DNA of 61,399 nucleotides, counting the filler. It is 5 parts of 5 records of this genome, joined end to end, with 100 filler letters (N's around TTAATTAATTAA, not from the genome) between each part and the next. Parts side by side here need not be neighbours in the genome. Positions count along the whole stretch, not along the records: positions 44,298 to 55,793 come from SRR2962707_1672; 4 more parts are not named here. One strand, given 5' to 3'. Of this stretch, positions 44,298 to 61,399 are shown in pieces (position 1 is the first letter of the stretch; every line of letters begins with the position of its first letter). The notes under the pieces are model-generated. The model was given only the letters and a program-made list of their open reading frames with translations, searched no databases and was not told the DNA's origin. Position numbers and translations under genes: made by a program.

Positions 44298-44373
44298 ATG
44301 GATTAAATTATTTTCCTTTAAATACCTGTAGGTTTTGCCTCGAGGTAGTTGATTTCTGTGTAACTTTTTAAAT

Positions 44374-44408
44374 AAAAAAAAGGCTTGTCGTGATTGACAA
44401 GCCTTTTT
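44374..44408 (-). terminator. Attenuator terminator hairpin
   Basis: Minus strand AAAAAGGCTTGTC-AATCAC-GACAAGCC-T8. Confidence 0.88.
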
Positions 44409-44440
44409 GTATATTTTAAAAATATCACAGCAATGCTACC

Positions 44441-44497
44441 TCACGACGTTTTACGTAAGTTAGACCACCACCAAGTATTTCTTCTAATTGTTCTCAT
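44441..44497 (-). CDS. trpL: Tryptophan attenuator leader peptide MRTIRRNTWWWSNLRKTS
   Basis: Three tandem TGG codons; GTCGTGA at the leader end is complementary to TCACGAC in the terminator. Confidence 0.88.
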   Translation of the reverse strand: MRTIRRNTWWWSNLRKTS

Positions 44498-44586
44498 TGA
44501 TGAACCAAATATAGAAATCAATTTTCATTTATCAAACTAAAAAGAGTATTTACAACTAAATTCTTTTTGAATGTTAGAAAGTTGCC

Positions 44587-44617
44587 AAAAAAAAAGCTGC
44601 CCAGAGGCAGCTTTTTT
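44587..44617 (-). terminator. Intrinsic terminator after the YceI gene
   Basis: AGCTGCC/GGCAGCT stem flanked by A and T tracts. Confidence 0.85.
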
Positions 44618-44638
44618 AAGGTTTGGGAATGAATTGAT

Positions 44639-45211
44639 TTAGAATACTAAATCTACCACTAAATCAAATTCATCATATATTGTTTTGTCTCCAAGGTTGT
44701 CAAAGAAACTTCCAGAACCGTAACGAACATCGTATTTTGTTCTGTCTATTTTTAAATTTGCTGTAGCTTTACTTCCGTATACAGACATTTCAAAAGTTAT
44801 AGGATTTGTCTTACCTTTAATAGTTAGGTCTCCAGTAACTTCGTAAGAATTTTTACCAGTAGGATTTACCTTTGTAATTACTAAAGTAGCTGTAGGATGA
44901 TTCTCAACACCAAAGAAATCATTAGATTTTAAATGACCATCTAGTTTTGTTTTGTATTCTCCACTTAAATCGGTAGCACCAATTGTAGTCATATCTACTG
45001 CAAATTCTCCTCCTATAAGTTTATCTCCATCAAATTTTAACTCTCCGCTTTTTAAAGCAATAGTACCTTCATGAGATCCTGTTACTTTATACCCTTTCCA
45101 AGTAATTTCACTCTTTTCGGTATCTACTTTTTTGGTATCTGGTTCTGTAAAAGATGATGTTCCTAATACTACTGCGAATATTGTTACTGATTTTAATATT
45201 TTATTTTTCAT
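44639..45211 (-). CDS. YceI-family protein
   Basis: Signal peptide, WKGYKVTGSHEG, LDGHLKSNDFF, IDRTKY. Confidence 0.92.
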   Translation of the reverse strand: MKNKILKSVTIFAVVLGTSSFTEPDTKKVDTEKSEITWKGYKVTGSHEGTIALKSGELKFDGDKLIGGEFAVDMTTIGATDLSGEYKTKLDGHLKSNDFFGVENHPTATLVITKVNPTGKNSYEVTGDLTIKGKTNPITFEMSVYGSKATANLKIDRTKYDVRYGSGSFFDNLGDKTIYDEFDLVVDLVF

Positions 45212-45265
45212 ATGTTTATTTTTTTAATAATTCTTTATAATAATATAGTACGTATTCTGTTGTTT

Positions 45266-45898
45266 TTAAATATTGATAAATAATTCTTCTGTAGATTTTC
45301 TAACTTTTTTATAGTGTTGTGTTTCATCTTCTTCAGAACGGTACCCTATAGGTGCAATTACAGAAGGAGTTAAGCCAAGCTCTTTTAAACCTAAAATGTC
45401 TGCAAATTTATCAGCTTCAAAACCTTCCATCGGGCAAGTGTCAATTTTTAAATCTGCTGCTGCAGACAATAAATTTCCAAGCGCAATATAGGTTTGCTTT
45501 GCAGACCATATATTTCTAATGTCTTCTGGAAGAGGCATTAATGAGTTTTTCATTAAATCTGAATAGCCTTGAAGATTTTCAATAGCTAAATCTCTTGTTT
45601 CACTTACATTTTTTATAAAATCATTGATATGATCTTCTCCAAAGTTGTTAATGCTAGCAAAAATAACGATGTGTGAAGCATCTGTAATTTGCGACTGGTT
45701 CCAAGCTACTGGCTTTAATTTCTCTTTAGTTTCTTGGTCGGAAACTATAATTACTTTATAAGGTTGTAATCCATAAGAAGAAGCAGATAATTGGATAGCT
45801 TCTTTTAAAGCTTCTAGGTCTTTTTCTGATACTTTTTTGGTGGCATCAAATTTTTTGGTGGCATAACGCCAATTTAAATTATTGTTATAAGTACTCAT
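45266..45898 (-). CDS. NAD(P)H nitroreductase
   Basis: WRYATKKFD, SSYGLQP, CPMEGF, IGYRS. Confidence 0.93.
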   Translation of the reverse strand: MSTYNNNLNWRYATKKFDATKKVSEKDLEALKEAIQLSASSYGLQPYKVIIVSDQETKEKLKPVAWNQSQITDASHIVIFASINNFGEDHINDFIKNVSETRDLAIENLQGYSDLMKNSLMPLPEDIRNIWSAKQTYIALGNLLSAAADLKIDTCPMEGFEADKFADILGLKELGLTPSVIAPIGYRSEEDETQHYKKVRKSTEELFINI

Positions 45899-45918
45899 GA
45901 TTGTTGTTTTTACATTAG

Positions 45919-45930
45919 TTGTATGTACAA
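45919..45930. promoter_or_regulatory. Putative MarR operator
   Basis: TTGTA-TG-TACAA palindrome upstream of the nitroreductase; identical copy at 46414. Confidence 0.65.
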
Positions 45931-45948
45931 TTGTTGTTTTAAATTTTT

Positions 45949-46398
45949 TTAACCTCTTATTTTTTCAAGTATATTATTTAATTGTTCTATTTCTTCTGAA
46001 GATAGATTTTTTATAATATTTTCATTTTGAAGATCAATAGGCTCATCTATTTCAGAAAGTAATTTTAGTCCTTTCTCTGTGATACTAATTTCTACTTTCC
46101 GCCTATTTTCTTCACAAGTAACTCTATTTACCAGTCCTTTAGTAATTAACTTATCAACTAAACGAGTAGTATTACTCATTTTGCTAATCATTCGTTCTTG
46201 AATGGTACAAAGGTTGGCAGGCTTCCCTTTTTGGCCTCTTAAAATGCGCAATACATTAAATTGCGGGGGTGTAATTCCAAATGGCTTTAGAATCTCTGCC
46301 GATTTATCCTGAATGGCATTGGCTGTATACATAATATGTATAGCAGTTTTTCTACCATCTGGCATAGCATTAGATTTTATAGCGTCTTCAATTTTCAT
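45949..46398 (-). CDS. MarR-family regulator
   Basis: QFNVLRILRG, TRLVDKL, NRRKVEISITEKG. Confidence 0.93.
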   Translation of the reverse strand: MKIEDAIKSNAMPDGRKTAIHIMYTANAIQDKSAEILKPFGITPPQFNVLRILRGQKGKPANLCTIQERMISKMSNTTRLVDKLITKGLVNRVTCEENRRKVEISITEKGLKLLSEIDEPIDLQNENIIKNLSSEEIEQLNNILEKIRG

Positions 46399-46411
46399 TT
46401 GTTATTACAAT

Positions 46412-46427
46412 ATTTGTATGTACAAAT
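46412..46427. promoter_or_regulatory. Putative MarR autoregulatory operator
   Basis: ATTTGTA-TG-TACAAAT palindrome 14 bp upstream of the marR start. Confidence 0.7.
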
Positions 46428-46535
46428 GTAATATGATTTGAATGAAGTGCAAAACATTTAACTTATAAAATATTGTTAAAACTTATTGAGATGTCTTTCC
46501 TATTGATACATTTATAAGATGCTAATTAATGAATA

Positions 46536-47096
46536 ATGAGAATGAAAACGATAGTAACAATAGTATTTATAGTGGTGTTATTTGGTTGTAAAGAGTCCAA
46601 TTCGGAACGTAAAGTAGTAGCCATAAATAATTTTAATAAGGTAGAACCAATAGATATTATTAAGGCTAAGGATATTACAATACCTGTGTATGATTATGAC
46701 AGTTTTGAAAAGTTAATAGCAACAAACGATACTAAAACTTATGTAGTTAATTTTTGGGCTACTTGGTGTAAACCTTGTGTTGAAGAGCTTCCAAGTTTTG
46801 AAAAAATTTATGATAAATATAAAGGACAAAATGTAGAAGTTATTTTAGTAAGCCTAGACTTTCCCAAAAAAGTGGATGATGTATTGGTTCCATTTATAGA
46901 GAAGAACAAATTAAAAAGTAATGTTATTCTTTTAGATGATCCTAAACAGAATCGTTGGATTCCAAAAGTAGATAAAGATTGGTCGGGGGCAATTCCAGCA
47001 ACAATAATAATTAATGAAAATAACCGTTCTTTTTATGAAAAATCTTTTACCTTTATAGAATTAGAAGATCAACTAAAGGGTTTTATTACTAACTAA
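46536..47096 (+). CDS. TlpA-like thiol-disulfide redoxin lipoprotein
   Basis: Lipobox LFGC, NFWATWCKPC. Confidence 0.9.
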   Translation: MRMKTIVTIVFIVVLFGCKESNSERKVVAINNFNKVEPIDIIKAKDITIPVYDYDSFEKLIATNDTKTYVVNFWATWCKPCVEELPSFEKIYDKYKGQNVEVILVSLDFPKKVDDVLVPFIEKNKLKSNVILLDDPKQNRWIPKVDKDWSGAIPATIIINENNRSFYEKSFTFIELEDQLKGFITN

Positions 47097-47111
47097 ACTA
47101 ACCTACATAAA

Positions 47112-47726
47112 ATGAAACCGTTAAAAATAATATTCCTCATTGTGGTGGTTATCACTAACAGTGCGTTTACATTTCCTAGTTCAATAGGGGATGGGTATGA
47201 AATAGGAGATAAGGCAGCAGATTTTAAGTTAAAAAATATTGACGGAAAGACCGTTTCTTTATCCGACTATAAAGACGCAAAAGGATTCTTAGTTGTATTT
47301 ACATGTAATACGTGTCCGTATGCAAATGCCTACGAAGAAAGGATTATTGCTTTGGATAAAAAGTATAAACTAAAAGGGGTTCCTGTAATAGCTATAAACC
47401 CTAATAATCCTTCAAAAAGTCCTGAGGAAAGTTTCGAACAAATGCAGGAACGAGCTGCCAATAAGGGGTATACATTTCCTTATTTAGTAGACAAAGGTCA
47501 AAATATATCGCCACTTTATGGAGCTCAGCGCACCCCTCATTGCTTTCTGCTTGAAAAAACAAGCAATGGTAATATTGTAAAATATATTGGTGCAATAGAC
47601 GATAATTATCAAGACGAAGCAGCAGTGGAAAAGGCTTATGTGGCAAATGCAATAGACGCCATGCTGGTAGGAGAGGAAATTCAAATAAAAAATACAAAAG
47701 CTATAGGGTGTTCTATTAAGCTTTAA
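47112..47726 (+). CDS. Thioredoxin/peroxiredoxin-like protein
   Basis: FTCNTCPY, YIGAIDD, AIGCSIK. Confidence 0.88.
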   Translation: MKPLKIIFLIVVVITNSAFTFPSSIGDGYEIGDKAADFKLKNIDGKTVSLSDYKDAKGFLVVFTCNTCPYANAYEERIIALDKKYKLKGVPVIAINPNNPSKSPEESFEQMQERAANKGYTFPYLVDKGQNISPLYGAQRTPHCFLLEKTSNGNIVKYIGAIDDNYQDEAAVEKAYVANAIDAMLVGEEIQIKNTKAIGCSIKL

Positions 47727-47792
47727 ACCCTCTGGGATTTAATTTTTAAAGATATCTAAAGCTTTAATTCTACAAGATTTATATAAATTTGT

Positions 47793-47821
47793 AATCCGAA
47801 GTAATTGCTTCGGATTTTTTT
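47793..47821 (+). terminator. Intrinsic terminator
   Basis: AATCCGAAG-TAATTG-CTTCGGATT plus T tract. Confidence 0.75.
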
Positions 47822-47844
47822 CATATTAATTTTAAAAAATAATT

Positions 47845-48159
47845 ATGGCAGATTTAACTCAAGAAGAGTGGGCAGAGGAATTAGCACAAGATAGCAATGC
47901 TGTTATTTTGGATGTACGTACAGAAGAAGAGGTGGAAGATGGATATATCCCAAATGCAATAAATATTGATATATATAAAGGACAAGGTTTTTTAGACGAA
48001 GTTGAAAAATTAGACAAGTCAAAAAACTATTATGTCTATTGTCGTTCTGGAGCGCGTAGTGCTCAAGCGTGTACTTTAATGAATCAACTTGGGTTTGAAA
48101 ATACTAGTAATTTATTAGGAGGTTTTTCAAACTGGGAAGGTGAAGTAGTTGAAGAGTAA
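47845..48159 (+). CDS. Rhodanese-like protein
   Basis: LDVRT, YCRSGARS, LLGG. Confidence 0.92.
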   Translation: MADLTQEEWAEELAQDSNAVILDVRTEEEVEDGYIPNAINIDIYKGQGFLDEVEKLDKSKNYYVYCRSGARSAQACTLMNQLGFENTSNLLGGFSNWEGEVVEE

Positions 48160-48328
48160 TTTATTTTATAGTAAACTACATCTGGGATAAGCCCATAAGG
48201 CATATAAACAGGGAGCACATTTTGATTTCGAGGCTAGGCTCGGAGTTAAAACCTCGATTATCGAGTAAATAAGTTCTATTTGTATAAATTTTCAGTATCT
48301 TCTTTCAAAATTTTGAGGTGTCACTATT

Positions 48329-49600
48329 TTGAAAGAAGATTTTTTGCATTATATATGGAAGTTTAAAAAGTTTTCGACTAACAATTTGAAAACTGAAAGC
48401 GGGGAAACGTTAGAGGTTATTTCTTTAGGGACTCATAACTTACTGGCTGGTCCAGACTTTTTAAATGCCCAACTTAGAATAGATGGGCAGCATTGGGCTG
48501 GAAATGTTGAAATTCATGAAAAATCATCATTTTGGTATGCACACCACCATGAAAAAGATGAAGCTTATACTAATGTAATTCTTCATGTAGTTTGGGAACA
48601 TAATACAGAAGTGTTCAGTAAAAACAATTCTCCAATTGCTACATTGGTTTTAAAAAACATTCTTCAGAAAGAAACACTTATCTCGTATCAAGCTTTAATA
48701 AATAAGTGTTCTAGTTTTGTAAATTGTGAAAGTGAGGTAACGGAAATTGATTCATTTTTTAGAAACCGCTGGTTAGAGCGTTTGTATGTAGAACGGTTAA
48801 ATGATAAATCAAAATTGATCCTCCAAAAACTTCAAGAATCTAAAAATGATTGGGAAGCTGTATTGTATAAAATGCTTCTGAAAAATTTTGGATTAAAAAT
48901 AAATGGAGAAGCTTTTTTTGAGCTTTCCGAAGAATTACCTTTTTCGATCCTTAGAAAAAATAGAGATTCCGTTTTAACAGTAGAAGCACTGTTATTTGGA
49001 GTTTCAAATATGTTAGAAGTAGAATGTGCCGATCAATATTTTATTGATTTAAAAGAAGAATATAAATACCTAGAAAGTAAATACGCATTAAAAAAGTCTC
49101 ATTTAACCCCTGCATATTTTAAATTACGTCCCTATAATTTTCCTACAATTAGATTGTCTCAAATAGCTTCGTTATACAATAAGGAAGTTAACCTTTTTCA
49201 GCAATTGGTATCTTGTAATGAGCTGGAAAACTATTATACTATTTTTGATGTTTCAGCTAGTAATTATTGGGAGCAACATTATACTTTTGGGAAAGAAACA
49301 ACTTCATCTAAAATAAAAAAACTCAGTAAAAGTTTTATAGATTTACTTATTGTTAACACCATTCTTCCACTAAAATTCTGTTATTTAAAAGCAACAGGAG
49401 AAGATGCAAGTGAAAGTATTTTTTTAATGATTGAAAAAATTAAAAAAGAAGATAATAGAATTATTAATAGCTTTGATAAAATTGGTTTTAAAACTAATAC
49501 GGCTTTAGGGAGTCAGGCTCAACTACAACTCTATAATAATTATTGTAGTAAAAATAAATGTTTGCAATGCGAAATAGGAGTTAAATTAATGAATCGATAA
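48329..49600 (+). CDS. DUF2851-family protein
   Basis: EDFLHYIW, GPDF, WAGNVEIH, LRPYNFPTIRL, C..C..C.IG terminus; TTG start. Confidence 0.85.
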   Translation: MKEDFLHYIWKFKKFSTNNLKTESGETLEVISLGTHNLLAGPDFLNAQLRIDGQHWAGNVEIHEKSSFWYAHHHEKDEAYTNVILHVVWEHNTEVFSKNNSPIATLVLKNILQKETLISYQALINKCSSFVNCESEVTEIDSFFRNRWLERLYVERLNDKSKLILQKLQESKNDWEAVLYKMLLKNFGLKINGEAFFELSEELPFSILRKNRDSVLTVEALLFGVSNMLEVECADQYFIDLKEEYKYLESKYALKKSHLTPAYFKLRPYNFPTIRLSQIASLYNKEVNLFQQLVSCNELENYYTIFDVSASNYWEQHYTFGKETTSSKIKKLSKSFIDLLIVNTILPLKFCYLKATGEDASESIFLMIEKIKKEDNRIINSFDKIGFKTNTALGSQAQLQLYNNYCSKNKCLQCEIGVKLMNR

Positions 49601-49615
49601 TTCTATATTTGTACT

Positions 49616-49843
49616 ATGAATACTTTTCAAGACATTCGATATTATTTTGAAAAAAATGGCTATGCTGTTTCTTCAAGATTGGCTGATAGGCTAGGAATGA
49701 AAACAAAAAATGTGAGGTTATTTTTTATATATGCTTCTTTTTTTACGTTGGGGATTTGGTTTTTAGTGTATTTGACTTTAGCTTTTTGGTTAAAACTAAA
49801 AGATTTGGTGTACACAAAACGAACTTCTGTGTTTGATTTGTAA
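49616..49843 (+). CDS. PspC-domain membrane protein
   Basis: 75 aa, VSSRLADRLG..VRLFFIY, one TM. Confidence 0.75.
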   Translation: MNTFQDIRYYFEKNGYAVSSRLADRLGMKTKNVRLFFIYASFFTLGIWFLVYLTLAFWLKLKDLVYTKRTSVFDL

Positions 49844-49900
49844 ACCCGTTTAATTGAGTAGAAACACATATTTAGTTGTAAGAAATCCAAAGTTTAAAAG

Positions 49901-50926
49901 ATGTTCAAATTATTTAAATCCAAGTTTTACATTGCAGTAGCTTTATTACTCTTTATTTTTTCTTTTGGAATTATTGGGTATCGATTGCTTGGGAATTATA
50001 GTTGGGTGGAGGCCGCATATATGACGGTGATTACTATTACAACTGTTGGTTTTAGTGAAGTAAGACCAACGGACGATATCACCAAAATATTTACAATTGT
50101 ACTTATTACTTCGAGTGTTTTTATTGTAGCATATGCTATTTCTGTAGTTACAGAATATGTTTTATCTAGAAGTACGCTTCAGAATATAAAATTTAGGAAA
50201 ATGAAAAAACAAGTTGATAGTCTTAATAACCATATCATTATTTGTGGTTATGGTAGAAATGGAATGCAAGCAGCAAAGAAACTCAATGCCTATAGAAAAT
50301 CATTTGTTGTTATTGAGCAAGATGAAGAATTGGTTAATAAACATAATGATGAAGTCTTGTTTGTTATTGGAAATGCAAATGAAGACGAAACTCTTGAAGC
50401 AGCAGGAATCCAAAGAGCAGAATGTTTAATTACAACCCTTCCTAATGATGCCGATAATTTATTTGTTGTACTTTCTTCAAGACAATTAAATAAAGAAATA
50501 GTTATAATTAGTAGAGCTTCTCAAGAAACTTCTCAAAGAAAACTAAAATTAGCAGGAGCCAACAAAACAATAATGCCAGATAAAATAGGAGGAGATCATA
50601 TGGCTTCCTTAGTGGTTTTACCAGATTTAATAGAATTTATGGATCAGCTTTCTATTGATGATGAAACTACAATTAATTTAGAAGAAGTGGCAGTAGATAA
50701 TTTGCCAGATGGCTATCTGTATAAAACATTAGTAGATTTAGACTTAAGAAGACAAACAGGATGTACTGCTATTGGTTATAAACAGCCAGATGGAAAATAT
50801 ATAATCAACCCAGATGCGAGTGTGCAATTGTTGCCAAATTCTAAGTTAATGGTACTTGGTCAACCAGAACAAATAAAGAAGCTAAATACGCTTTTTCAGA
50901 TTGCAGAAAGTACATTTAACGGGTAA
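49901..50926 (+). CDS. Potassium channel with RCK (TrkA-N/C) domains
   Basis: TITTVGFSE filter, ICGYGRNG. Confidence 0.92.
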   Translation: MFKLFKSKFYIAVALLLFIFSFGIIGYRLLGNYSWVEAAYMTVITITTVGFSEVRPTDDITKIFTIVLITSSVFIVAYAISVVTEYVLSRSTLQNIKFRKMKKQVDSLNNHIIICGYGRNGMQAAKKLNAYRKSFVVIEQDEELVNKHNDEVLFVIGNANEDETLEAAGIQRAECLITTLPNDADNLFVVLSSRQLNKEIVIISRASQETSQRKLKLAGANKTIMPDKIGGDHMASLVVLPDLIEFMDQLSIDDETTINLEEVAVDNLPDGYLYKTLVDLDLRRQTGCTAIGYKQPDGKYIINPDASVQLLPNSKLMVLGQPEQIKKLNTLFQIAESTFNG

Positions 50927-51012
50927 AATTTGAATAAACGCCTTTTTTTTATGATATTGCCCCGTCAGTTTTAAGAATTCTTAATTTAAATATAACCTAA
51001 ACATAATTCTTT

Positions 51013-53094
51013 ATGAGAAAACAATTTCTCTCGATTTTTATAATGCTTTGTTCTGTTGCAGTTTTTGCACAAGAACTTACAGTAAAAGAAACTTTAATTA
51101 ACCCGTCAAATAAAATTAATGACGGACAAGTAGAGTTAGAAGTTACTGGTGGAACTCCCCCATACACATATAAGTGGAGCAGTCAAGAAACTTCACTTAA
51201 ATCTAATACGGCAATTAATTTAACAGAAGGAGTAGATTATTCGGTATTAGTTAAAGACGCCACAGGAAAGTCGGTCGAAAAAACATTTAATATTGATACC
51301 GAGTCAATAACAGAGATATTCAACGGAACCATGACCCCAGCAGTAGCAGGATTAGGTTCCGTTTTATTTTGGGATCCATTTGCTGCAACAGGGATATATG
51401 ATCCAGTTGTATATGCAGATGTAAAGTTGATTTCAATTCCAGAATGGAATGCAGATACAGAAGGTAAATTCTCTTTACAGCAATGGTTAAAGCCAGAAGG
51501 ATCTCATGTTAATAAAGGAGATAAAATAGCTGTTATTTCAAAATCAACAGGAGGAACCGTAGATGCTTTTGCGCAAGCAAACGGGGAGCTAAAATATTTG
51601 GTAAAAGAAGGTGGAGTAATTTACAATTCCGACAATAAAAAGCATGTTATTGAGCAAGGCGCTCAATATTTAGCAGAAATTAAATATGATGAGCCTATCC
51701 CATTAGTACATCCAAACGGAGATCCTCAAACAAAAAACATTCCATTTATTGTTGTTTGGTTGTTATTAGGAGCAACATTCTTTACGCTTAGAATGGGCTT
51801 TATTAATATTCGTGGATTTAGACATTCGTTAGATTTAGCAAAAGGAAAATATGACGATCCAGATGCTCCAGGTCAAGTAACACATTTCCAAGCATTGGCT
51901 ACAGCAGTTTCTGGAACTGTAGGTCTAGGAAATATTGCTGGGGTTGCAGTGGCAGTTTCATTAGGAGGAGCTGGTGCAACAATGTGGATGATTCTAGCAG
52001 GACTTTTAGGAATGTCTTCAAAATTTGTGGAGTGTACTTTAGGAGTAAAATATAGAGATATTCTTCCTGATGGACGTGTTTTTGGAGGTCCGATGAATTA
52101 CTTGCGTTATGGTTTAGAAAAAAGAAACCTTAAAGGAGTTGGTAAATTCTTAGCTGTATTCTTTGCTATTTTAGCAGTAGGAGCTTCTTTTGGAGGAGGT
52201 AATATGTTCCAAGCAAATCAATCTTTTGAGCAGTTAGCGGGTCAGTTTCCAGTACTTGCAGGTCATGGATTTTGGTTTGGGGTTATCACCGCAATTCTAG
52301 TAGGAACTGTAATTTTAGGAGGTATTAGTAGTATTGCTAAAGTAACAGAAAAGATTGTACCATTTATGGCTGGAATCTATGTATTAGCAGCTTTAATTGT
52401 TATTGGAGTAAATATAGAAAATATAGGGCCAGCTTTTTCTGCAATTATAGATGGAGCTTTTAGTCCAAGTGCATTAAAAGGTGGTGTAATTGGAGTATTG
52501 ATTGTAGGTTTCCAAAGAGCAGCATTCTCTAATGAGGCTGGAGTAGGATCTGCAGCAATTGCCCATAGTGCGGCAAAAACAAATCATCCGCCATCAGAAG
52601 GGTTTGTGGCTTTATTAGAGCCTTTTATAGATACGGTAGTAGTTTGTACTTTAACAGCATTGGTATTAATTTTTACAGGAATGCATGAAGTAGAAGGAAT
52701 TGCTGGAGCGCAGTTAACATCAGATGCTTTTGGGAGTGTAATTAGTTGGTTCCCTTATGTGCTAGCAGTTGCAGTTTTCTTATTTGCATTTTCAACTATG
52801 ATTTCTTGGTCCTACTACGGAATGAGAGCTTGGACATTCTTATTCGGAAAGAGTAGAAAAACCGAGATAGTTTACAAAATATTCTTCATGATCTTTATTG
52901 TTATTGGAGCTTCTGTAAGTTTAGGCGCAGTGTTAGACTTTTCGGATATGATGATTTTAGCAATGTCGTTCCCTAATATTATAGGTCTTTATATAATGAG
53001 TGGAGAAGTTAGAGAAGACCTTCGTGAGTATTTTAGAAAGTTAAAAGCTGGCGAATTATTTAAAAAGCAAAAAGCAGCAAAAGAGACTGCTTAA
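51013..53094 (+). CDS. AGCS alanine/glycine:cation symporter with N-terminal soluble extensions
   Basis: [38 protein letters not shown]; about 240 extra N-terminal residues. Confidence 0.92.
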
Positions 53095-53106
53095 TATACT
53101 ACATTA

Positions 53107-53961
53107 ATGAAATTTTTATCCCACTTCAGGTTTTCTAAAAGCCAAAGAAGTGGGATATTTTTTTTAATATTAATTGTAGTTGGGATTCAATTTCTAACAG
53201 TAGGTTGGGGTGTTTTTAAAATAGAAAGAAGTATTTCTGCTAAAAAGGTGTCGATTGTTACTGAAAATAACGTTGAGCAAAAGTTTCAACATTATAAGTT
53301 TAATCCAAATTATTTAACCGATTTTAAAGGATATTCTTTAGGTTTATCTACTGAAGAAATAAATGCTTTGTTTGAATATAGAGAAGCTGGAGATTTTGTA
53401 AACTCTTCATTAGAATTTCAAAAAGTAACTGGTGTGTCAGATTCTTTGTTGAAAACCATCGATCCTTATTTTAAATTTCCTGAGTTTAAAACCCTTCCGC
53501 AGAAAACAATAATTAAAAAACATTTTGAAAAGGCAGATGTTAATCTAGCTAATCCTAAAGATTTTGAGAATGTATATGGGATAGGAGAAAAATTGGGGTT
53601 GAGAATTGTAAAATACCGAGATTTATTAGGAGGATTTTACTTTAAAGACCAACTTAATGAGGTTTATGGTTTAGATGAAGCAACTGTAAAGCAAGTATGG
53701 AAATTATTTGACATTAAAAAGTTGCCCAATTTTAAAAAACTAGATGTAAATCAGGCTACTGTTAAGGAGTTAAATAATCTCCCATATATAGACTGGGAGT
53801 TAGCTAAAAAAATTGTATCTTATAGAAGCGCCCATTTAAAAATCAATTCAATTGATGAATTAACAAAAATTGAGGATTTTCCTTCAGATAAATTAAATAG
53901 AATTGAATTATATTTGGCAGCTGAATCTACTCTCTCGAGACAAATTCAACAGAACAAGTAA
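53107..53961 (+). CDS. ComEA-like helix-hairpin-helix protein
   Basis: One TM, DVNLAN..VYGIGEKLGLRIVKYR, LDVNQAT. Confidence 0.85.
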   Translation: MKFLSHFRFSKSQRSGIFFLILIVVGIQFLTVGWGVFKIERSISAKKVSIVTENNVEQKFQHYKFNPNYLTDFKGYSLGLSTEEINALFEYREAGDFVNSSLEFQKVTGVSDSLLKTIDPYFKFPEFKTLPQKTIIKKHFEKADVNLANPKDFENVYGIGEKLGLRIVKYRDLLGGFYFKDQLNEVYGLDEATVKQVWKLFDIKKLPNFKKLDVNQATVKELNNLPYIDWELAKKIVSYRSAHLKINSIDELTKIEDFPSDKLNRIELYLAAESTLSRQIQQNK

Positions 53962-54024
53962 TACTAATAACTATCTCGGTACTCCTGAGAAATTAAACCC
54001 AACTATTGGGATTAGAACGAACGA

Positions 54025-55188
54025 ATGGAATTGGACATAGCGGCACAAATGAATTTTGATTATACAGAAACACAGCAATTAGTTGCAAATTCGGCTAAAG
54101 AGTTTGCGGAGCAATACATAAGACCTTATGTAATGGAATGGGATGAATCTCAAACTTTTCCAATTGAAGTTTTTAAAAAAGCTGGAGAATTAGGTTTTAT
54201 GGGGGTTTTAGTACCAGAAACTTATGGAGGTTCTGGACTTGGATACCATGAATATATTGCTATTCTAGATGAAATTTCTAAGGTGGATCCTTCTATTGGT
54301 TTATCGGTTGCTGCACACAATTCGCTTTGTACTAATCATATTTTAACTTTTGGGAATGAAGAACAGAAGCAAAGATGGTTGCCTAAATTGGCTACAGCCG
54401 AATGGATTGGCGCTTGGGGGCTTACTGAGCACAATACAGGTTCGGATGCTGGGGGGATGAGTACTACGGCAGTAAAGGATGGAGATGAATGGGTTATTAA
54501 TGGCGCAAAAAACTTTATTACCCATGGAAAAAGCGGAGATGTAGCTGTAGTTATTGTGAGAACTGGAGAAAAAGGAGATTCTCATGGAATGACAGCTTTT
54601 GTGGTGGAAAAAGGAACTCCAGGTTTTTCTAGTGGAAAAAAAGAAGATAAATTAGGAATGAGAGCCAGTGAAACTGCTGAACTTGTATTTTCTGATTGTA
54701 GAATTCCAGATGCAAATCGTTTAGGAGAAGTAGGAGATGGATTTATTCAGTCCATGAAGATTCTAGATGGCGGTCGTATTTCTATTGGAGCACTTTCCTT
54801 AGGAGTTGCAAAAGGAGCTTATGAAGCAGCTTTGAAATATTCAAAAGAAAGAGTTCAGTTTGGAAAGCCAATTTCGGAGTTTCAGGGAATTTCTTTTAAA
54901 CTGGCAGATATGGCTACCGATATTGAAGCGTCTGAATTATTATTGCACAAAGCAGCCTTCGAAAAAAATGCAGGTAGAAAAATGACCAAGTTAAGCGCAA
55001 TGTGTAAAATGTTTGCGTCAGAAGCTTGTGTTAGAATAGCTAATGAAGCAGTTCAGATTCATGGTGGATATGGATATACAAAAGATTTTCCTGTAGAGAA
55101 GTTTTACAGAGATTCTAAGTTGTGTACTATAGGAGAAGGAACCACCGAGATTCAAAAAGTAGTTATTTCCCGTCATCTTTTAAAATAA
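54025..55188 (+). CDS. Acyl-CoA dehydrogenase
   Basis: GLTEHNTGSDA, KLGMRAS, QIHGGYGY, IGEGTTEIQ; start may be 54049. Confidence 0.95.
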   Translation: MELDIAAQMNFDYTETQQLVANSAKEFAEQYIRPYVMEWDESQTFPIEVFKKAGELGFMGVLVPETYGGSGLGYHEYIAILDEISKVDPSIGLSVAAHNSLCTNHILTFGNEEQKQRWLPKLATAEWIGAWGLTEHNTGSDAGGMSTTAVKDGDEWVINGAKNFITHGKSGDVAVVIVRTGEKGDSHGMTAFVVEKGTPGFSSGKKEDKLGMRASETAELVFSDCRIPDANRLGEVGDGFIQSMKILDGGRISIGALSLGVAKGAYEAALKYSKERVQFGKPISEFQGISFKLADMATDIEASELLLHKAAFEKNAGRKMTKLSAMCKMFASEACVRIANEAVQIHGGYGYTKDFPVEKFYRDSKLCTIGEGTTEIQKVVISRHLLK

Positions 55189-55260
55189 GTTTTTGTTTAA
55201 CTCCGTCCTAAACGTTTGTCATAAATCTTTTAGAAGCTTTCTATAGTTATGTTTAGAGCG

Positions 55261-55768
55261 TTGTTACCATTAATTTGAAAAAATGAACAAACTAACAATA
55301 ATTATACTTCTGATTTTAGTAATTTCTAGTTGTACAGATATTAATCAAACTGAAAATAGGATTGCGGAAATGGAAAATTTGCGTACTGAAAATGATAGTC
55401 TGAAGAAAATTGTAGCGGAAATTAAAAATAAATATGTTTTTGACAGTATCTGTATGAGAGATATTCCTTCTTATAAAAACTCATATGAAGTTAATTCAAA
55501 TTTTAAAGGAGAAATAGTTTTTGTTGGTTACAACAATGATATTCAAAATACAAATGTTATAATTATTGATAGTATTACATATAACCCAAAGAAACTCTTT
55601 AATCCTGATACGCTTAAATTAAAAAATGGTGGATTTCATTACGAATTGAAAATGGATTCTGAAAGAGTTTATTGGAAAGCTGCAATTCAGACTAAACACA
55701 AATACGGAAAAGAGTATCAAGGAATTTTAATGAACGCTGTCCAAGCGAAAAAAAACTAATGGTAACAA
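55261..55768. repeat. 12-bp perfect inverted repeat framing one ORF
   Basis: TTGTTACCATTA (55261-55272) and TAATGGTAACAA (55757-55768). Confidence 0.75.
55283..55759 (+). CDS. Hypothetical lipoprotein
   Basis: Signal peptide with ISSC lipobox, short coiled coil; no recognised family. Confidence 0.75.
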   Translation: MNKLTIIILLILVISSCTDINQTENRIAEMENLRTENDSLKKIVAEIKNKYVFDSICMRDIPSYKNSYEVNSNFKGEIVFVGYNNDIQNTNVIIIDSITYNPKKLFNPDTLKLKNGGFHYELKMDSERVYWKAAIQTKHKYGKEYQGILMNAVQAKKN

Positions 55769-55793
55769 AGAACTGAGTTAAAAAACAAGTTTT

Positions 55794-55893
55794 NNNNNNN
55801 NNNNNNNNNNNNNNNNNNNNNNNNNNNNNNNNNNNNNTTAATTAATTAANNNNNNNNNNNNNNNNNNNNNNNNNNNNNNNNNNNNNNNNNNNN
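55794..55893. other. Artificial contig spacer
   Basis: N run containing TTAATTAATTAA. Confidence 0.99.
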
Positions 55894-55902
55894 TACGTAC
55901 AT

Positions 55903-55922
55903 TACATACATACATACATACA
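55903..55922. repeat. (TACA)5 microsatellite
   Basis: Read directly at the contig start. Confidence 0.85.
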
Positions 55923-56056
55923 TTACATGCGTACGGTTGCGAACGAAACAAAACCGAGGAGCGAGAGAGTGAAAATACGATAATCCGTTTGAAAGAAAAG
56001 TGCCGTTTTGGGCGGGCATCGTTCGATTATTCAGAAGCACCCGAAAGCCCGTTGCC

Positions 56057-58520
56057 ATGTCTTCTGCTGCTGCAGATCAGCCGGTCGCTAGGGAAGCTCC
56101 TTTTGGAGAGTGGGAAAGCCCGATCACTGCAGAGCTGATTACAGCGTCGGCAGTTGGTATTCGCACGCTTGCGTCCGCCGCAGGGCGGCTGTTCTGGTTG
56201 GAGTCGCGGCCGGAGGAAGGAGGTCGCTATGTTGTGGTTTCTTATGACCCGTCGTCACCAAACGCAAGCGAGCGAGGTGGAGTCGATGTCATTCCCGCAG
56301 ATCATAATGCCAGGACGCGTGTGCACGAGTATGGAGGCGGGGAATTTCTCGTTGCCCCTGACGGCAGTGTAATCTACAGCAACTTCAAAGACCAGCGATT
56401 GTACCGGGCACGGAGTGCAACGGAAGTCCAAGAACTCACGCCAAAGTCGGCTTTTGAGCCAGATGGCCTGTTCCGCTTTGCCGACGCCGTTCTTGATCTA
56501 CCGCGCAATCGGTTGATATGCGTGCGGGAAGACCACACGAAACCAAGGCCTGCCGAGGTTCAAAATACAATCGTAGCTATTGCTCTTGACGGCACAGGTG
56601 CAACAACCGTAATCGCTGAGGGATCCGACTTCTATAGTGCACCACGCCTTTCGCCAGATGGGTCAACGCTTGCTTTTGTGTCGTGGAACCACCCACATAT
56701 GCCATGGGATGCGACGGCACTGAATGTTGTACGTCTCGATGAGACCGGTATTCCAACGAGTGAGCCCGTGACTGTTGCCGGCGGCTGCGAGGCTGAAATT
56801 GAGGAGGTTTCCGTCATGCAGCCCGCTTGGTCTCCAGCTGGCGAGTTATACTTCGTGTCAGACGAAAGTGGATGGTGGAATATTTTCAAAGTCCCAAAGA
56901 TGCTGTCAGCACAACCAGAATCCAATCTCCATGATTGGCGGGCAGCGGCAGCGAATATTCTGCGCCGAGATGCTGACTTCTGTGGCTGGTCGGCTGGATG
57001 GCTGTTAGGTCAGCAAGGATACGCGTTTACAAACGAAGGACATATCGTCACTGCCCAGGGTGGGCACACGCTCATGATACTTGCGCCTGATGGGAAAATT
57101 GTAAGCGAAGCAACGCATTCCAATGGGTTACCACCCGCTTTTGGATCTCTGACAGTCGGTCGCGGAGACGAACTTTTCTTCATTGGGACGAGTCCCACAG
57201 CACCCACTGCGATTTTCAGTTGGTCTGTCGCCGGGGATACTCCTGCAAAGAAACTTGCCAGTTGCATGAAAGCCTCTTCGTTGATACCTCGCCGGTACGT
57301 GTCGTATCCAAAAGCTATTACCTTCCCGACAAAGGCTTTACCTGGTTCCGACATCGATATTGCACACGGGAATCTGTATGAACCCTGCAATGGGGACTAT
57401 ACTGCCCCAAAAGGCACACTACCTCCGTTGTTAGTGAAAGCTCACGGCGGTCCTACATCCCGAGCGCGCACTTCTTTTAATCCTGGAATTCAAGTGCGTA
57501 GTGTTGCCATGCGATTCTGTTTTTTTTATGTGTGCGCTTGCGCGCTTGCGCGTTTCGCCTAGCGCAAGGCTGAATCACTATCAGCGAACGTCGTTTTTTG
57601 CCGTGGCCACTGTGACGTTGTCTAAAATGTAATGAGTGTGTCTGCTGGATGAACTACGGCATTCATGCTAGTTTTGGACAAGTCGCGGCTTTGCGGTTTT
57701 GGATGTTGACTATCGGGGCTCGAGTGGCTACGGCACTGCATACCGCCGCGAACTTCGTGGGCATTGGGGAATTTGTGACATTGACGATGTCTGTTTTGGA
57801 GCTAAATATCTTGTCGACCAGCGTCTTGTTGACGGTGCTCGTCTCGCCATCGATGGTGGCTCTGCTGGTGGGTACACAACACTTGGCGCCCTTGCGTTCC
57901 GAAACGTCTTTTCTGCTGGTTGCAGTTTGTACGGTGTTGCGGATCTCGGAGCACTTGCTGCTGACACCCACAAATTCGAATCACGGTATTTGGACAAGCT
58001 GGTGGGACGCTGGCCTGAAGACAAGGGGATCTATGATGAGCGGGCTCCAATCAATTCCTGCGATACTCTTTCATGTCCAGTGTTGCTATTGCAGGTTTGT
58101 TGCGAGATCTTTTCCCTTTTTGAACAAAAATGGCTCTTTGTCCTCGTATTTTGAACCGCTCACGAATCCAGTTTTCTTGGTGCATAGGGTGACGAGGACA
58201 AAATTGTCCCTCCGAATCAAGCAGAACGCATGTATGCTGCACTGAAAGCGAAACGTATTCCTTGTGCTCTGAAAGTGTATGTCGGTGAACAGCATGGGTT
58301 TCGCAAAGCCGAAAATATTCAGGTGCGTACCGGCAGTTGCACTCTATTGCTTGCTGTCGCTGTCTCCATCTATGACGCAGCAGGGACCATGATTCACTGA
58401 TGCATTGCACTTGCTACCGCGAAGGATGCGCTGAATGCGGAACTCTACTTTTACGGACGTGTGTTTGGGTTTTCACCACCTGGTGACTACGAAGGGTTCT
58501 CAATCGACAACCTGGATTGA
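56057..58520 (+). CDS. Eukaryotic S9-family serine peptidase; exons 56057-57493, 57672-58094, 58188-58322, 58425-58520
   Basis: HGGPT, GGSAGG, DKIVPP, HGFR triad restored in frame by three GT-AG introns; GCCATG start. Confidence 0.88.
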
Positions 58521-58622
58521 CGCCTGACTCAACACGACCCAACGGAAAGACACTCTTCCGTGTGCAGAAAGTGTGTGAGAGGCGAACATGCCACTTCAAC
58601 TGATTTTACTACAATTATTATT

Positions 58623-60970
58623 TTAAAATTGAAAGTGTTTTGGAGGATGTTCGCGCTTTCCGCGTCTGGATCCGGGAGGCGACTAGTGTCGATGATATCA
58701 ATACAACAACATCCATACATGTGTTCATAAAACAGGCAGAGAAATTTTGAACGTAATTTCTGTGGCACACGCAAGTAGGCACCATTTCGTCTCCACAAAT
58801 TTGACTTCCGGCACCCCCAAAACGTACGTGGGTAACCTCGCCCCGAGTCGCAGACACTTTGCTTGCAGGAGAGTTTTTGTTGAAATTTGCGGATGACGCC
58901 GCTGCCGCCCTCTGCGCAGCAGGCGAGATTGGATGCACCAGCCCACGTGCACGCTCTGCGCTACGTGGTCTTGCAACACGATCCATGGACAAGTTCCTGT
59001 ACACACAGGCAAGGTTGGCTCCCAATCAGACACGTGTGACGACACAACAACCGCATTCGACGCTGGCAATTCTTCCAAAATTTCAATACGTACTGCGGCC
59101 GTTGGGGTCTGTGAGAAGCCCGGCTTTGATTCGCTCCATTGGTGGATGCCATGTCATACTCCACCATATCATCGTCCTTGGGAGTCGCTGAACGAAGAAG
59201 CTGGGCATGCTTGACGGCCTCTGGAAAGTCTTTAGTGCCAGGCAATGCCCCCTGCGTTGGGATTTGTGCAGGATTGGAAAGCCGGTCAACCGATAGCCTG
59301 GAATGAAGTGAGTCAGTCACGTCCGTGCGAGTATTGGATTGCGACACAGATTGTAGATGGTGGAGATGAGGGTTTTTCTCGATATATCCTCGCGAAGAAG
59401 TAGCTGCTTGTGATGAAGTTGCTTCCACTTGACGTCGTATCGCGTTGGAGGCATCGGCGAGCGTCTGTAGGTGTTCATCATTAACTGTTCTTTGTGAAGT
59501 GGAAACATCAGTCGTAATCGCAGCGCCGGAGGATGCCTCCAAGGGAAGGTAGGTTCGAGCAAGCGGCTTTTGTCGAACTGGTCTGGCACTTGGACGCTTA
59601 GTCCTTTGCCGTCGTTGTGCCGCAGATCTGTGAAGTAATGCTTTCGCGTTTTGAGCTTCGTCGTCAATTTCCGCATCCGACGACGATGTTGACCACATTC
59701 CATCGCTTTCATCCCCCATGGAGGAAAACGAAGCGTCTAAGGACGAGAGGCTCCCAACACCTTTCGTGTGCAGTGAACTCAGTGGTGGCAGCTTTTTAGG
59801 CGGTGGGCGTGCTCGGACACCTCTATTTCGGGAAACAGCTGCGGCAAGCGCACCTGTGCGCTGATGCTGACGTGCGTCACCAACAGGCGCGGAAACTAGC
59901 TGACTTGACCCCGCTGTGCCGACTGGACGGATACATTGACGTGAGCTTGCTGCTGCACTGGTGGCAGCTTGTTCAAGTCGACGCGGTTGACCGTGAGGTC
60001 TTGATGGCACTGCAGAATTTGAAGCGTTCGTGTTTTGGGACAAGCGCCGCCGTGCCGGCTGAGCCGAATATTTGGTGACCTGGTCATGCACAGCGGTTGG
60101 GGTTGGTCGCGACAGCTGTTGAACTTGATGCGCTGGAATACGAGCGCCAAGCGCAGGTTTGGGAACTTGGTAAACCGAGCCGAGATTCGCAGATTTGCTT
60201 TCTACGTGATTTCGAAGAGCGCGCAGCCGTTGAGCTTGCAGTTCCTGCTCTTGCTGTTGTTTCTTGGCAAGCTCCATTTCATGGCGTGCAACTATATGAG
60301 GGGGTGGGGGTGCTGCTGGCGGTCTTGGCGCTCGCCTGACACGCGATTCTGTATTCGACGCTCGTGGCGGAGCCCGCAGTCCATTCCCTACGGATTTGGA
60401 ATGTCGATGCCGAGCAAGTTCGAGTGACGCACTTGCAGACATCGTGGGCTGACTGTATTTTCGCCGCAGGTTTGAACCGCCCATCGATTGGGCATGTTGG
60501 TGCTGGTGAAATTGCCTTTGCATGTCAGCGAGATTCGTCCCAGCGAAGTCGCCATCAGAGACATCCTCCTGTGAATCACCACCTGTTTTCTGCGCTTGCG
60601 ATTGCACCTGTTTTTGAGAGTCAAAATCCAGGTTGCGGGCGCTCGACATCATGCTCTTGTTCTTGAACTGCCGTAGATCGTCAATCGAGCCGGCTTGGAG
60701 ACTCAGCCCTGCCATCCCACCCACGCTCGATTGGGCGACAGCTGTGGATAGCAGCATCATCGACTCTCGCATGTTGCGCAATTCATTTTCCAGCTGCTGT
60801 CGGTGCTGTTGCTCGTCTTCCAATTTTTGTAGAATGAGGTTCAGGGACTTTTCTTCGCGGGTGGACGAACGGGTCCCAGCTTTACGCCCTGAGGACTTCA
60901 TGGCGGTCCACACTGGGTTCAGTTTAAGTGATCGCCATTCGTGCCTGCTCCATTTGAACTGACTTGCAGT
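58623..60970 (-). CDS. Eukaryotic low-complexity/coiled-coil hypothetical protein; 5' exons unresolved
   Basis: About 1.9-kb open frame rich in S/Q/R/A/P; GTACGT..AG introns at 59093-58997 and probably 58827-58683 join frames. Confidence 0.55.
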
Positions 60971-61373
60971 CTGTTGGGTCAGAAGCTGGCCTTCCTACTT
61001 CTCAGTGTTTTCGTTTCGTCTTGTTGTTTTGTTTTCCTGCTCCCACTGCCCAGAAAGAGACTCACCCACCCAAGATCCACCTGCTTCAACACGTCCAACG
61101 CACTTCAAAACAAAAATTACCCAGCTCCCACCACACCACGAAGAAGCCGCGAGGGTACTTCTCGATCACCGCACCTGATTCACAGTGAGTGCCGGGTGAA
61201 AGGGCCCACCTGCCGTCACTTTCAAAATTAATTAGCGTTGAGACGGCGTAATAAGCCGCAGCTGCATACGCACACGCACACGAGCTACGTACTCCCGAGA
61301 CTGCTCAAGTAACTAAGTGCTCTCTGCGTTCGTGCGTGTGTGTTGTGGGTGTGCGTTTCGTGTGCCTACAAGC

Positions 61374-61399
61374 TGTGTGTGTGTGTGTGTGTGTGTGTG
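61374..61399. repeat. (TG)13 microsatellite
   Basis: Read directly at the window end. Confidence 0.95.

Follow-up and report, generated by a model that had tools for sequence, protein, structure and literature searches.

A short gene at the end of an AT-rich contig raises the question of whether it is a mobile cassette and, if so, what moves it. The gene lies in a stretch of DNA of 61,399 nucleotides, filler included (the window), that joins five unrelated records; the contig occupies positions 44298-55793, and the record after it (part of window 55850-61399 and 1-44197) is GC-richer, with introns apparent. A sequence-only reading had proposed that the gene is an orphan framed by an inverted repeat and forms a single-gene mobile cassette of an integron-like or Xer-like system. 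We compared the locus with a genome of the same species (G409), with eight sequencing runs (X1 and so on), and with further genomes (G) and loci (L), and resolve it into six features:

54025-55188, plus strand: acyl-CoA dehydrogenase gene, conserved left anchor of the slot (Pfam PF00441, PF02771 and PF02770 over cut-off)
55199-55265, plus strand: receiving site, that is, a weak hairpin (CTAAAC...GTTTAG), 6 nt and GTT; common to the window, G409, X9, X12 and X13 up to 55265
55263-55272, plus strand: left core, GTTACCATTA; occupants diverge right after GTT, with loose ends at 55265 in X9, X12 and X13
55283-55759, plus strand: cargo gene, encoding a 158-aa predicted lipoprotein (115 homologues, alignment)
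55757-55767, plus strand: right core, TAATGGTAAC, plus A; start of an attC-like hairpin site, the remainder of which is cut off by the IS
55768-55793, minus strand: IS110-family element, last 26 nt (non-coding right end; matches to a 23-nt pattern), in opposite orientation to the cassette

The cargo gene, its cores and the slot

The inverted repeat is as the sequence-only reading had described it. The sequence TTGTTACCATTA at 55261-55272 has its exact inverse at 55757-55768; the left arm lies 10 nt ahead of the ATG, the right arm opens with, and so overlaps, the TAA stop codon of the 158-aa ORF, the match extends to 15/16, the contig ends close 3' of the right arm, at 55793, and a conserved gene, that for acyl-CoA dehydrogenase, lies just upstream. 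Exact inverted repeats of at least 12 bp within 3 kb occur nine times in the contig, the cassette's own counted, so that repeat length by itself proves little, and we rejected the 12-bp repeat as stand-alone evidence. The best ORF-framing inverted repeat at the contig's other 12 ORFs is 4-7 nt, and the expectation for an ORF-framing 12-nt repeat is about 6e-4 per ORF. The part of the repeat that belongs to the cassette is 10 bp, GTTACCATTA/TAATGGTAAC, rather than 12 bp, because G409 has TA, not TT, ahead of GTT and because 55768 is the first base of the IS.

The gene is not an orphan: we found 115 homologues, mostly from Flavobacteriaceae where named and many on short contigs, the closest of which (99%) carries the name Galbibacter orientalis in its source. 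Cys17 is invariant across the protein alignment, and the modelled structure comprises a long helix and an Ig/FN3-like beta-sandwich (mean pLDDT 86.6). The protein gave no Pfam match over cut-off, no family in the ESM Atlas and no Foldseek match at E<=0.001, and a search of G409 for the gene found no copy.

The ends of homologous cassettes covary, as the sequence-only reading had anticipated. We fetched 36 genome loci with a cargo-gene homologue; in the gene maps inspected, drawn from 20 of these loci, the neighbours are unrelated. With the best pair picked at each locus, 21 of the 36 have a 10-mer led by GTT ahead of the gene that matches, exactly inverted, the AAC-ended 10-mer behind it; three further loci pair over 9 nt, six over 3-5 nt and six not at all. 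Paired cores of 9-10 nt are thus present at 24/36 loci and short or no pairing at 12/36, and six distinct core sequences pair. Under a fixed picking rule that takes the final GTT 18-30 nt ahead of the ATG and the earliest AAC beyond the stop, applied to 30 rows including the window, the four variable core positions give 98 matches versus 78.8+-2.9, with 0 of 20,000 permutations as high, in a test whose rows share ancestry, so that independence is overstated. In homologous cassettes the GTT lies mostly 20-23 nt before the ATG, and after the right core comes a long palindromic site that closes with GTT. DNA similarity to G121, G247, G364 and G003 starts at query base 564 (55263), and similarity to G121 and G247 stops at query base 1068 (55767), the base after AAC. 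The core GTTACCA does deviate from GTTRRRY, as had been pointed out. We read 55263-55767 as the gene-bearing part of a swappable cassette.

The results at the slot itself show exchange of occupants at a fixed base. The acyl-CoA dehydrogenase gene is 99% identical in DNA to that of G409 and 78-83% identical to those of the next relatives. G409 matches the window up to the GTT and then carries a different, 189-aa gene with 9-nt paired ends, followed by a full 123-nt hairpin site and a truncated second cassette; downstream of the slot are a small ribosomal-protein-like gene, which we take to be rpsU, and a 297-aa XerC-like gene. Among the eight sequencing runs, X9 departs from the window at 55265 with the sequence of G409 (the two are identical at the junction and are counted once), X12 departs at 55265 with a third occupant, and two contigs of X13 with a mixed consensus at 55265 (agreement 0.78) suggest a fourth. 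The window's allele is present in X1, X14 and X7, of which X1 and X14 span the stretch without differences and are not independent of the window; X5 contains the cargo gene without bridging the left junction, and X11 stops short. None of the eight runs shows the window's cassette with an uninterrupted site at the slot. At least three different occupants, then, diverge right after the GTT at 55263-55265, and every occupant begins with GTT and a purine. In 6/7 other relatives the dehydrogenase gene is followed by the ribosomal-protein gene within about 150 nt, that is, the locus is empty; the seventh has a longer spacer. Both the swapped genes and the empty sites that a mobile cassette predicts are therefore found, and strain comparison shows occupants exchanged at a fixed GTT, as in integrons.

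No integrase is visible at the window locus, as had been noted: the slot is without a recombinase. Folding gives the left receiving site z = -1.35, and the TATA arms of other sites are absent from it; a significant hairpin is not supported there. Its geometry resembles the recombinase-proximal arrangement described below (hairpin, 5-7 nt, GTT), from which we infer an attI/attG-like secondary site.

Hairpin sites and a probable dedicated tyrosine recombinase

To describe the sites that follow such genes we used a site finder that required AAC, GTT and a TATA-like stem, and obtained 96 sites after filtering from 15 stretches of six genomes. Three features that the finder did not require are present in 96/96 sites each: C or T before AAC, C before GTT, and a purine after GTT. 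Sites run from AAC through a 3-nt spacer to the first stem arm, and from the second arm through 6 nt (5 in some) to GTT; their lengths span 44-221 nt and peak at 119-128 and 182-199. Complementarity between a cassette's own ends reaches at least 8 nt in 44 of 56 distinct adjacent cassettes shorter than 1.9 kb (null mean 1.6, maximum 7) and goes no further than 10 nt; between neighbouring ends across a site it reaches at least 8 nt in 8/96. Forty sites were folded, with a mean z of -2.4 for the top strand and -3.5 for the bottom strand, the bottom strand being the more stable in 38. Like integron cassettes, these have an imperfect palindrome after the gene and complementary own ends; the canonical core, by comparison, is largely absent, with GTTRRRY in 6/96 sites, the inverse RYYYAAC in 10/96 and GTTR in 96/96.

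These sites are widespread. A pattern for one length class, that of roughly 123 nt (120-128 nt), matched 95 of 151 sampled Flavobacteriaceae genomes, with 920 matches versus 2 for a reversed control. Sites within one genome are similar to each other. Site counts are lower bounds, because on the sense strand the finder detected none of the sites in the G004 array, which read AACAACGGTTCAT. That G409 carries many solitary sites is not supported, since 10/11 dispersed motif matches look like chance and one (L208) is a degenerate site; of three dispersed matches fetched in G337, one is a full site. Rfam, applied to five loci, returned tRNA and group II intron matches only.

Several arrays show further features. 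A different and longer repeat, beginning ACCGGTAACCGTTGCAC, lies between cassettes with proper GTT/AAC cores in L028:4001-6300. The same cassette occurs twice or more per array in L008, L018, L197 and L210, and a 609-nt unit occurs four times in the G337 array. Going by guesses from translation, the G409 array (L197:11520-12701 and neighbours) includes a gene whose start is like that of a restriction endonuclease, and a pair of small genes similar to a toxin-antitoxin module. The two G409 arrays contain three group II introns (L197, L198, L218): two stop just short of the GTT of a hairpin site, one begins immediately behind GTTG, and one of the three has an unrelated IS110 nested in its 3' domain.

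Arrays begin directly behind the gene for a tyrosine recombinase of about 370 aa. Each of five examined genomes has this additional recombinase, besides XerC/XerD, with a co-oriented gene array behind it, and so does L008; in G409, G337 and G001 site motifs cluster immediately downstream of it. The same-species genome has two copies, both away from the slot, a result obtained for G409 rather than for the window's strain; an intact recombinase gene lies at C1:3880345-3881451 of G409. Each G409 platform copy (C1:2764330, C1:3880626; near-identical) is about 6-10 kb from another tyrosine integrase, which suggests that the two ride on a mobile island. Directly after the recombinase stop codon most copies have a short hairpin, 5-7 nt and GTT; one Aequorivita copy (L046) is without such a hairpin site or an array.

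The recombinase family, delimited by an E-value gap between 1e-57 and 1e-83, is present in 106/151 genomes. Five or more sites are found in 49/106 genomes with the recombinase versus 5/45 without it (p 3e-5), and, for genomes of at least 2.8 Mb, in 47/92 versus 5/25 (p 0.006), both tests ignoring kinship and assembly gaps. For the presence of any site in genomes of at least 2.8 Mb, the difference (71/92 versus 15/25) is not significant (p = 0.12, kinship ignored). Sites occur in 18/45 genomes without a recombinase match, and 29/106 genomes with the recombinase have no match to the 120-128-nt pattern.

The recombinase differs from XerC/D and from canonical integron integrases. Its catalytic motifs are conserved, and the IntI insertion, about 40 residues, is absent in alignments against IntI1 and IntI4 (2a3v). 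No protein in G409, G001 or G337 passes the TIGR02249 cut-off, model positions about 180-240 being skipped. In a 34-protein tree the recombinases form a group separate from XerC/D (support 100/99) and lie in neither the XerC nor the XerD clade, the placement expected for dif modules; the group also holds, on long, unplaced branches, two IS91-associated recombinases and IntI1, for which we draw no position.

An IS110-family element in the downstream site

The contig break had been tentatively attributed to a repeated site. We reject a repeated recombination site: the repeated sequence at the contig end belongs to an IS110 terminus lying within the site downstream of the cassette, and its repetition explains the break. 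The 23 nt from the right AAC onward match at least 122 metagenome stretches, 80 of which we fetched. The matches follow gene ends, with C or T before AAC in 80/81 matches of the 23-nt pattern, and 54 of 72 distinct matches with at least 90 nt downstream encode a transposase C-terminus on the opposite strand; many matches without one look like copies that have lost internal parts. In full copies the encoded protein is 321-337 aa long and contains PF01548 and PF02371; the copy in L088, for example, has both IS110 domains, PF01548 (DEDD_Tnp_IS110) at 80.5 bits and PF02371 (Transposase_20) at 76.1 bits. At the other end of full copies the remainder of the hairpin site follows, so the IS lies between AACA and the stem. 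A full IS and the remaining part of the site would be located past the contig end, so the element at this locus may be no more than a remnant.

We fetched 30 IS loci and parsed 23, of which 16 have AACA and then the IS end, one has a changed core and six are cut by contig ends; no common core dinucleotide was found at the junctions. The lineage is present in 26/121 genomes, and a search of G409 allowing up to 3 mismatches did not find the IS end. Contigs sharing the IS end occur also in X14, X11, X1 and X5; in X14 a 1,208-nt contig of higher depth shares it, consistent with a repeated element, depth not being copy number. None of the runs that contain the stretch is an RNA run.

The element carries a putative guide. 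About 200 nt upstream of the transposase gene are a 9-nt copy of the flank and a copy of the element's own end. Across 18 elements, guide and own flank agree at 144/162 positions versus a null of 122+-4 (0 of 20,000), and across 15 genome rows, 3 of them truncated, the value is 99 versus 67.6+-6.2. Candidate upstream guides that covary with the site, as IS110 bridge RNAs do, are thus apparent, and we conclude that the IS110 element is likely RNA-guided to the hairpin site. Guides agree with the site variants specific to their hosts: the copy in G004 (L217) has a guide that reads ACGGTTCAT, like that genome's sites. The copies in G032 (L267, L283) target a second, different site family.

Proposed mechanism, alternatives and known systems

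On evidence that is comparative throughout, we propose that the cassette was inserted at the GTT by the dedicated recombinase, encoded elsewhere, and that its downstream site is interrupted by the likely RNA-guided IS110; we put the probability of this reading, with the dedicated recombinase as the probable mover, at about 80%. The recombinase would cut at the GTT/AAC core, as IntI does, and would act on the folded bottom strand, the own ends of the circular cassette rebuilding the 10-bp stem; the weak hairpin after the acyl-CoA dehydrogenase gene would serve as a secondary landing site, and new cassettes would enter ahead of older residents. The IS would part core from stem by about 1.25 kb, so that the cassette would be immobile until the IS excises. 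In integrons cleavage falls in the AAC triplet of the folded bottom strand, according to the available part of 10.1101/2022.09.11.507474, and the IntI insertion is described as essential for integron function in the accessible text of PMC8138268. Since the present recombinase is without an insertion called essential, single-strand hairpin chemistry remains a proposal, to which, given the dedicated recombinase as mover, we would assign slightly better than an even chance. The single-gene mobile cassette of a non-canonical integron-like system thus stands, on covariation, swaps and the empty locus, with a dedicated recombinase as the likely mover rather than the Xer-like one offered with it.

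Movement of a real cassette by host XerC/XerD, in the manner of dif-like modules, is unlikely. In G409 and relatives a 297-aa XerC-like gene does follow the slot at a distance of a few kb, and sites occur in genomes without a dedicated-recombinase match (18/45), but the XerC-like gene is present also in relatives with an empty locus, and arrays start behind the roughly 370-aa enzyme of a separate clade (100/99), not behind XerC/D. A dif site is a fixed 28 bp, whereas the sites here vary from 44 to 221 nt and conserve pairing rather than sequence. We consider it similarly improbable that the swaps arose without any cassette recombinase, from IS110 activity or from homologous recombination between repeated sites or IS copies. 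An IS end abuts the cassette and is shared by several contigs in X14, X11, X1 and X5, and sites within a genome are alike, as that explanation would have it; however, the G409 slot is free of IS and holds a swapped cassette whose site is intact, in a genome without the IS end, the left breakpoint is one base in all occupants without IS or long repeat, and IS junctions fall at AACA rather than at GTT.

An ordinary integron cassette that a canonical IntI had placed in a secondary attG site (a SALIN, that is, a single attC site lacking an integrase) would share the AAC/GTT triplet, the bottom-strand bias and the gene-then-site layout, and isolated cassettes at attG sites are described in the part of 10.1101/2022.09.11.507474 available to us. 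We nevertheless regard this as very unlikely, given that the TIGR02249 cut-off goes unpassed in G409, G001 and G337, that only 6/96 sites have GTTRRRY and 10/96 RYYYAAC, and that IntegronFinder 2.0, in the portion of PMC9024848 seen, reports one complete integron in Bacteroidetes proper, in Salinibacter. That the inverted repeat is due to chance and the gene is an ordinary accessory gene has almost no probability left: 12-bp inverted repeats do occur nine times in the contig, but covariation, base-exact swaps and homology limits at both cores oppose it, and occupants swapped at 55265 refute it.

Relatives of the recombinase are found next to resistance genes. Immediately upstream of tet(X3) in L219:4001-6100 and L220 (Acinetobacter, soil plasmids) is a 5'-truncated 'TnpF' recombinase that shares 49% identity with the G409 enzyme; a hairpin, 7 nt and GTT separate the two, and the tet(X3) gene ends in an AAC core, 7/10 of which is paired with the left core. 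On a Klebsiella plasmid (L223:3001-4760), a hairpin, 6 nt and GTTAGCGGTA lie between a truncated relative and blaVEB-3; the available text of PMC8928778 names the blaVEB-3-linked relative a TnpF-like integrase, and that of PMC11194056 has XerD adjoining tetX-catB11. A Chryseobacterium plasmid (L221:7920-16975) carries the complete platform of recombinase, hairpin-GTT and cassettes, and two reverse-oriented insertions, another IS110 and a group II intron, each sit right at a cassette's right core. These relatives upstream of tet(X3) and blaVEB-3 bear on the origin of both resistance genes.

Our search, with most subscription papers outside it, found no published description of the Flavobacteriaceae sites, crossover or IS110 lineage, and the accessible parts of PMC13616975, PMC7046756 and PMC11194056 contain no description of the system. 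As far as the available text of the reports goes, the closest described system is rAID-1, arrays for recombinase-associated acquired interbacterial defence that occur in gut Bacteroidales (Ross et al., 10.1101/471110, 10.1101/2025.05.03.651265), which likewise has an XerD-like recombinase with short co-oriented genes behind it and motifs repeated in the intergenic stretches. Two or more co-directional genes behind the recombinase, as in rAID-1, are present at the G409, G337, G001, G003, G004 and G005 loci; the window locus, without a recombinase, has no such arrangement. The rAID-1 recombinase is defined by >44% identity to BF9343_RS08045; here we compared instead with a rAID-type proxy, the 368-aa recombinase of a Parabacteroides plasmid (L224; Tdi1 and SMI1/KNR4 genes) that fits the rAID-1 description. 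This enzyme is 35-43% identical to the four Flavobacteriaceae enzymes compared (40.5% to that of G409), falls in the same clade with weak inner support and is without the IntI insertion, and L224 cassettes pair their own ends over 9-11 nt, in 3 cases recovered by exact match. The systems differ in that Flavobacteriaceae sites have a GTT core and are long, mostly 119-128 or 182-221 nt, whereas those of L224 are about 45-60 nt with ATT; in that rAID-1 cargo consists of predicted immunity genes, whereas the window's cargo has no family match; and in that the window's cassette is at a solitary locus away from the recombinase, unlike rAID-1 arrays. The portions seen of the rAID-1 papers define no cassette borders, crossover point or excision.

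Two further systems bear comparison. In Riemerella anatipestifer, as reported in the accessible part of PMC13148043, aph(3')-IVb is captured independently of homology with a 27-bp 5' flank and a 140-bp hairpin-forming 3' flank, the recombinase being unnamed and the mechanism left open there; compared by description, these flanks have the dimensions of Flavobacteriaceae cassettes (sites about 123 nt). The IS resembles the IS1111-attC elements (ISKpn4, ISPst6) and the IS110 bridge/seekRNA elements, by the available text of PMC11187229 and PMC11208160, in its DEDD recombinase, in a predicted non-coding RNA with target and donor guides, and in having one insertion position and orientation in cassette sites. 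It differs in that its non-coding region is upstream (IS110 type, not IS1111 type), in that its target is a Bacteroidota hairpin site, and in that no constant duplicated core is visible at its junctions, unlike those described for IS110/IS1111-attC elements.

Taken jointly, the observations may mean that Bacteroidota have an integron of their own on folded sites, of which rAID-1 is one branch; that a recombinase without the IntI insertion writes cassettes behind its own gene and into solitary housekeeping-gene hairpins; that a cassette-locking, RNA-guided IS110 parasite has a guide that tracks each host's site variant; and that 'TnpF' gave Proteobacteria tet(X3)/blaVEB. We hold this joint reading tentatively, at a little under even odds. 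The presence of one length class of sites in 95/151 Flavobacteriaceae genomes contrasts with integron surveys that, by the part of PMC9024848 available, find almost nothing in Bacteroidetes. A natural strain comparison at the slot fixes the exchange point to a single base, and the slot offers a small testable system of recombinase, landing hairpin, cassette and site. The IS110 lineage provides, ready-made in nature, a range of guides programmed differently against a single conserved target. Should the enzyme prove to recombine hairpins in the absence of the IntI insertion, integron integrases would need a broader definition than the accepted one, and direct tests would open up for the mechanisms by which rAID-1 captures genes and Riemerella takes them up independently of homology.

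The likenesses to integrons are gene-then-site cassettes, the AAC/GTT core, complementary own ends, a bottom-strand folding bias, entry at a fixed GTT and the use of secondary chromosomal sites (Loot et al., 10.1101/2022.09.11.507474, in the part available). The differences are that the recombinase here is without the IntI insertion and is co-oriented with its array, whereas the two are divergent in a class 1 control (L239); that core pairing extends over 10 nt with a GTTR consensus only, and the spacer is asymmetric, 3 versus 6 nt; and that the recombinase-proximal site is itself a hairpin. We conclude that the system works like an integron but departs from two of its defining features, the integrase insertion and the canonical core, and that it is not a canonical integron.
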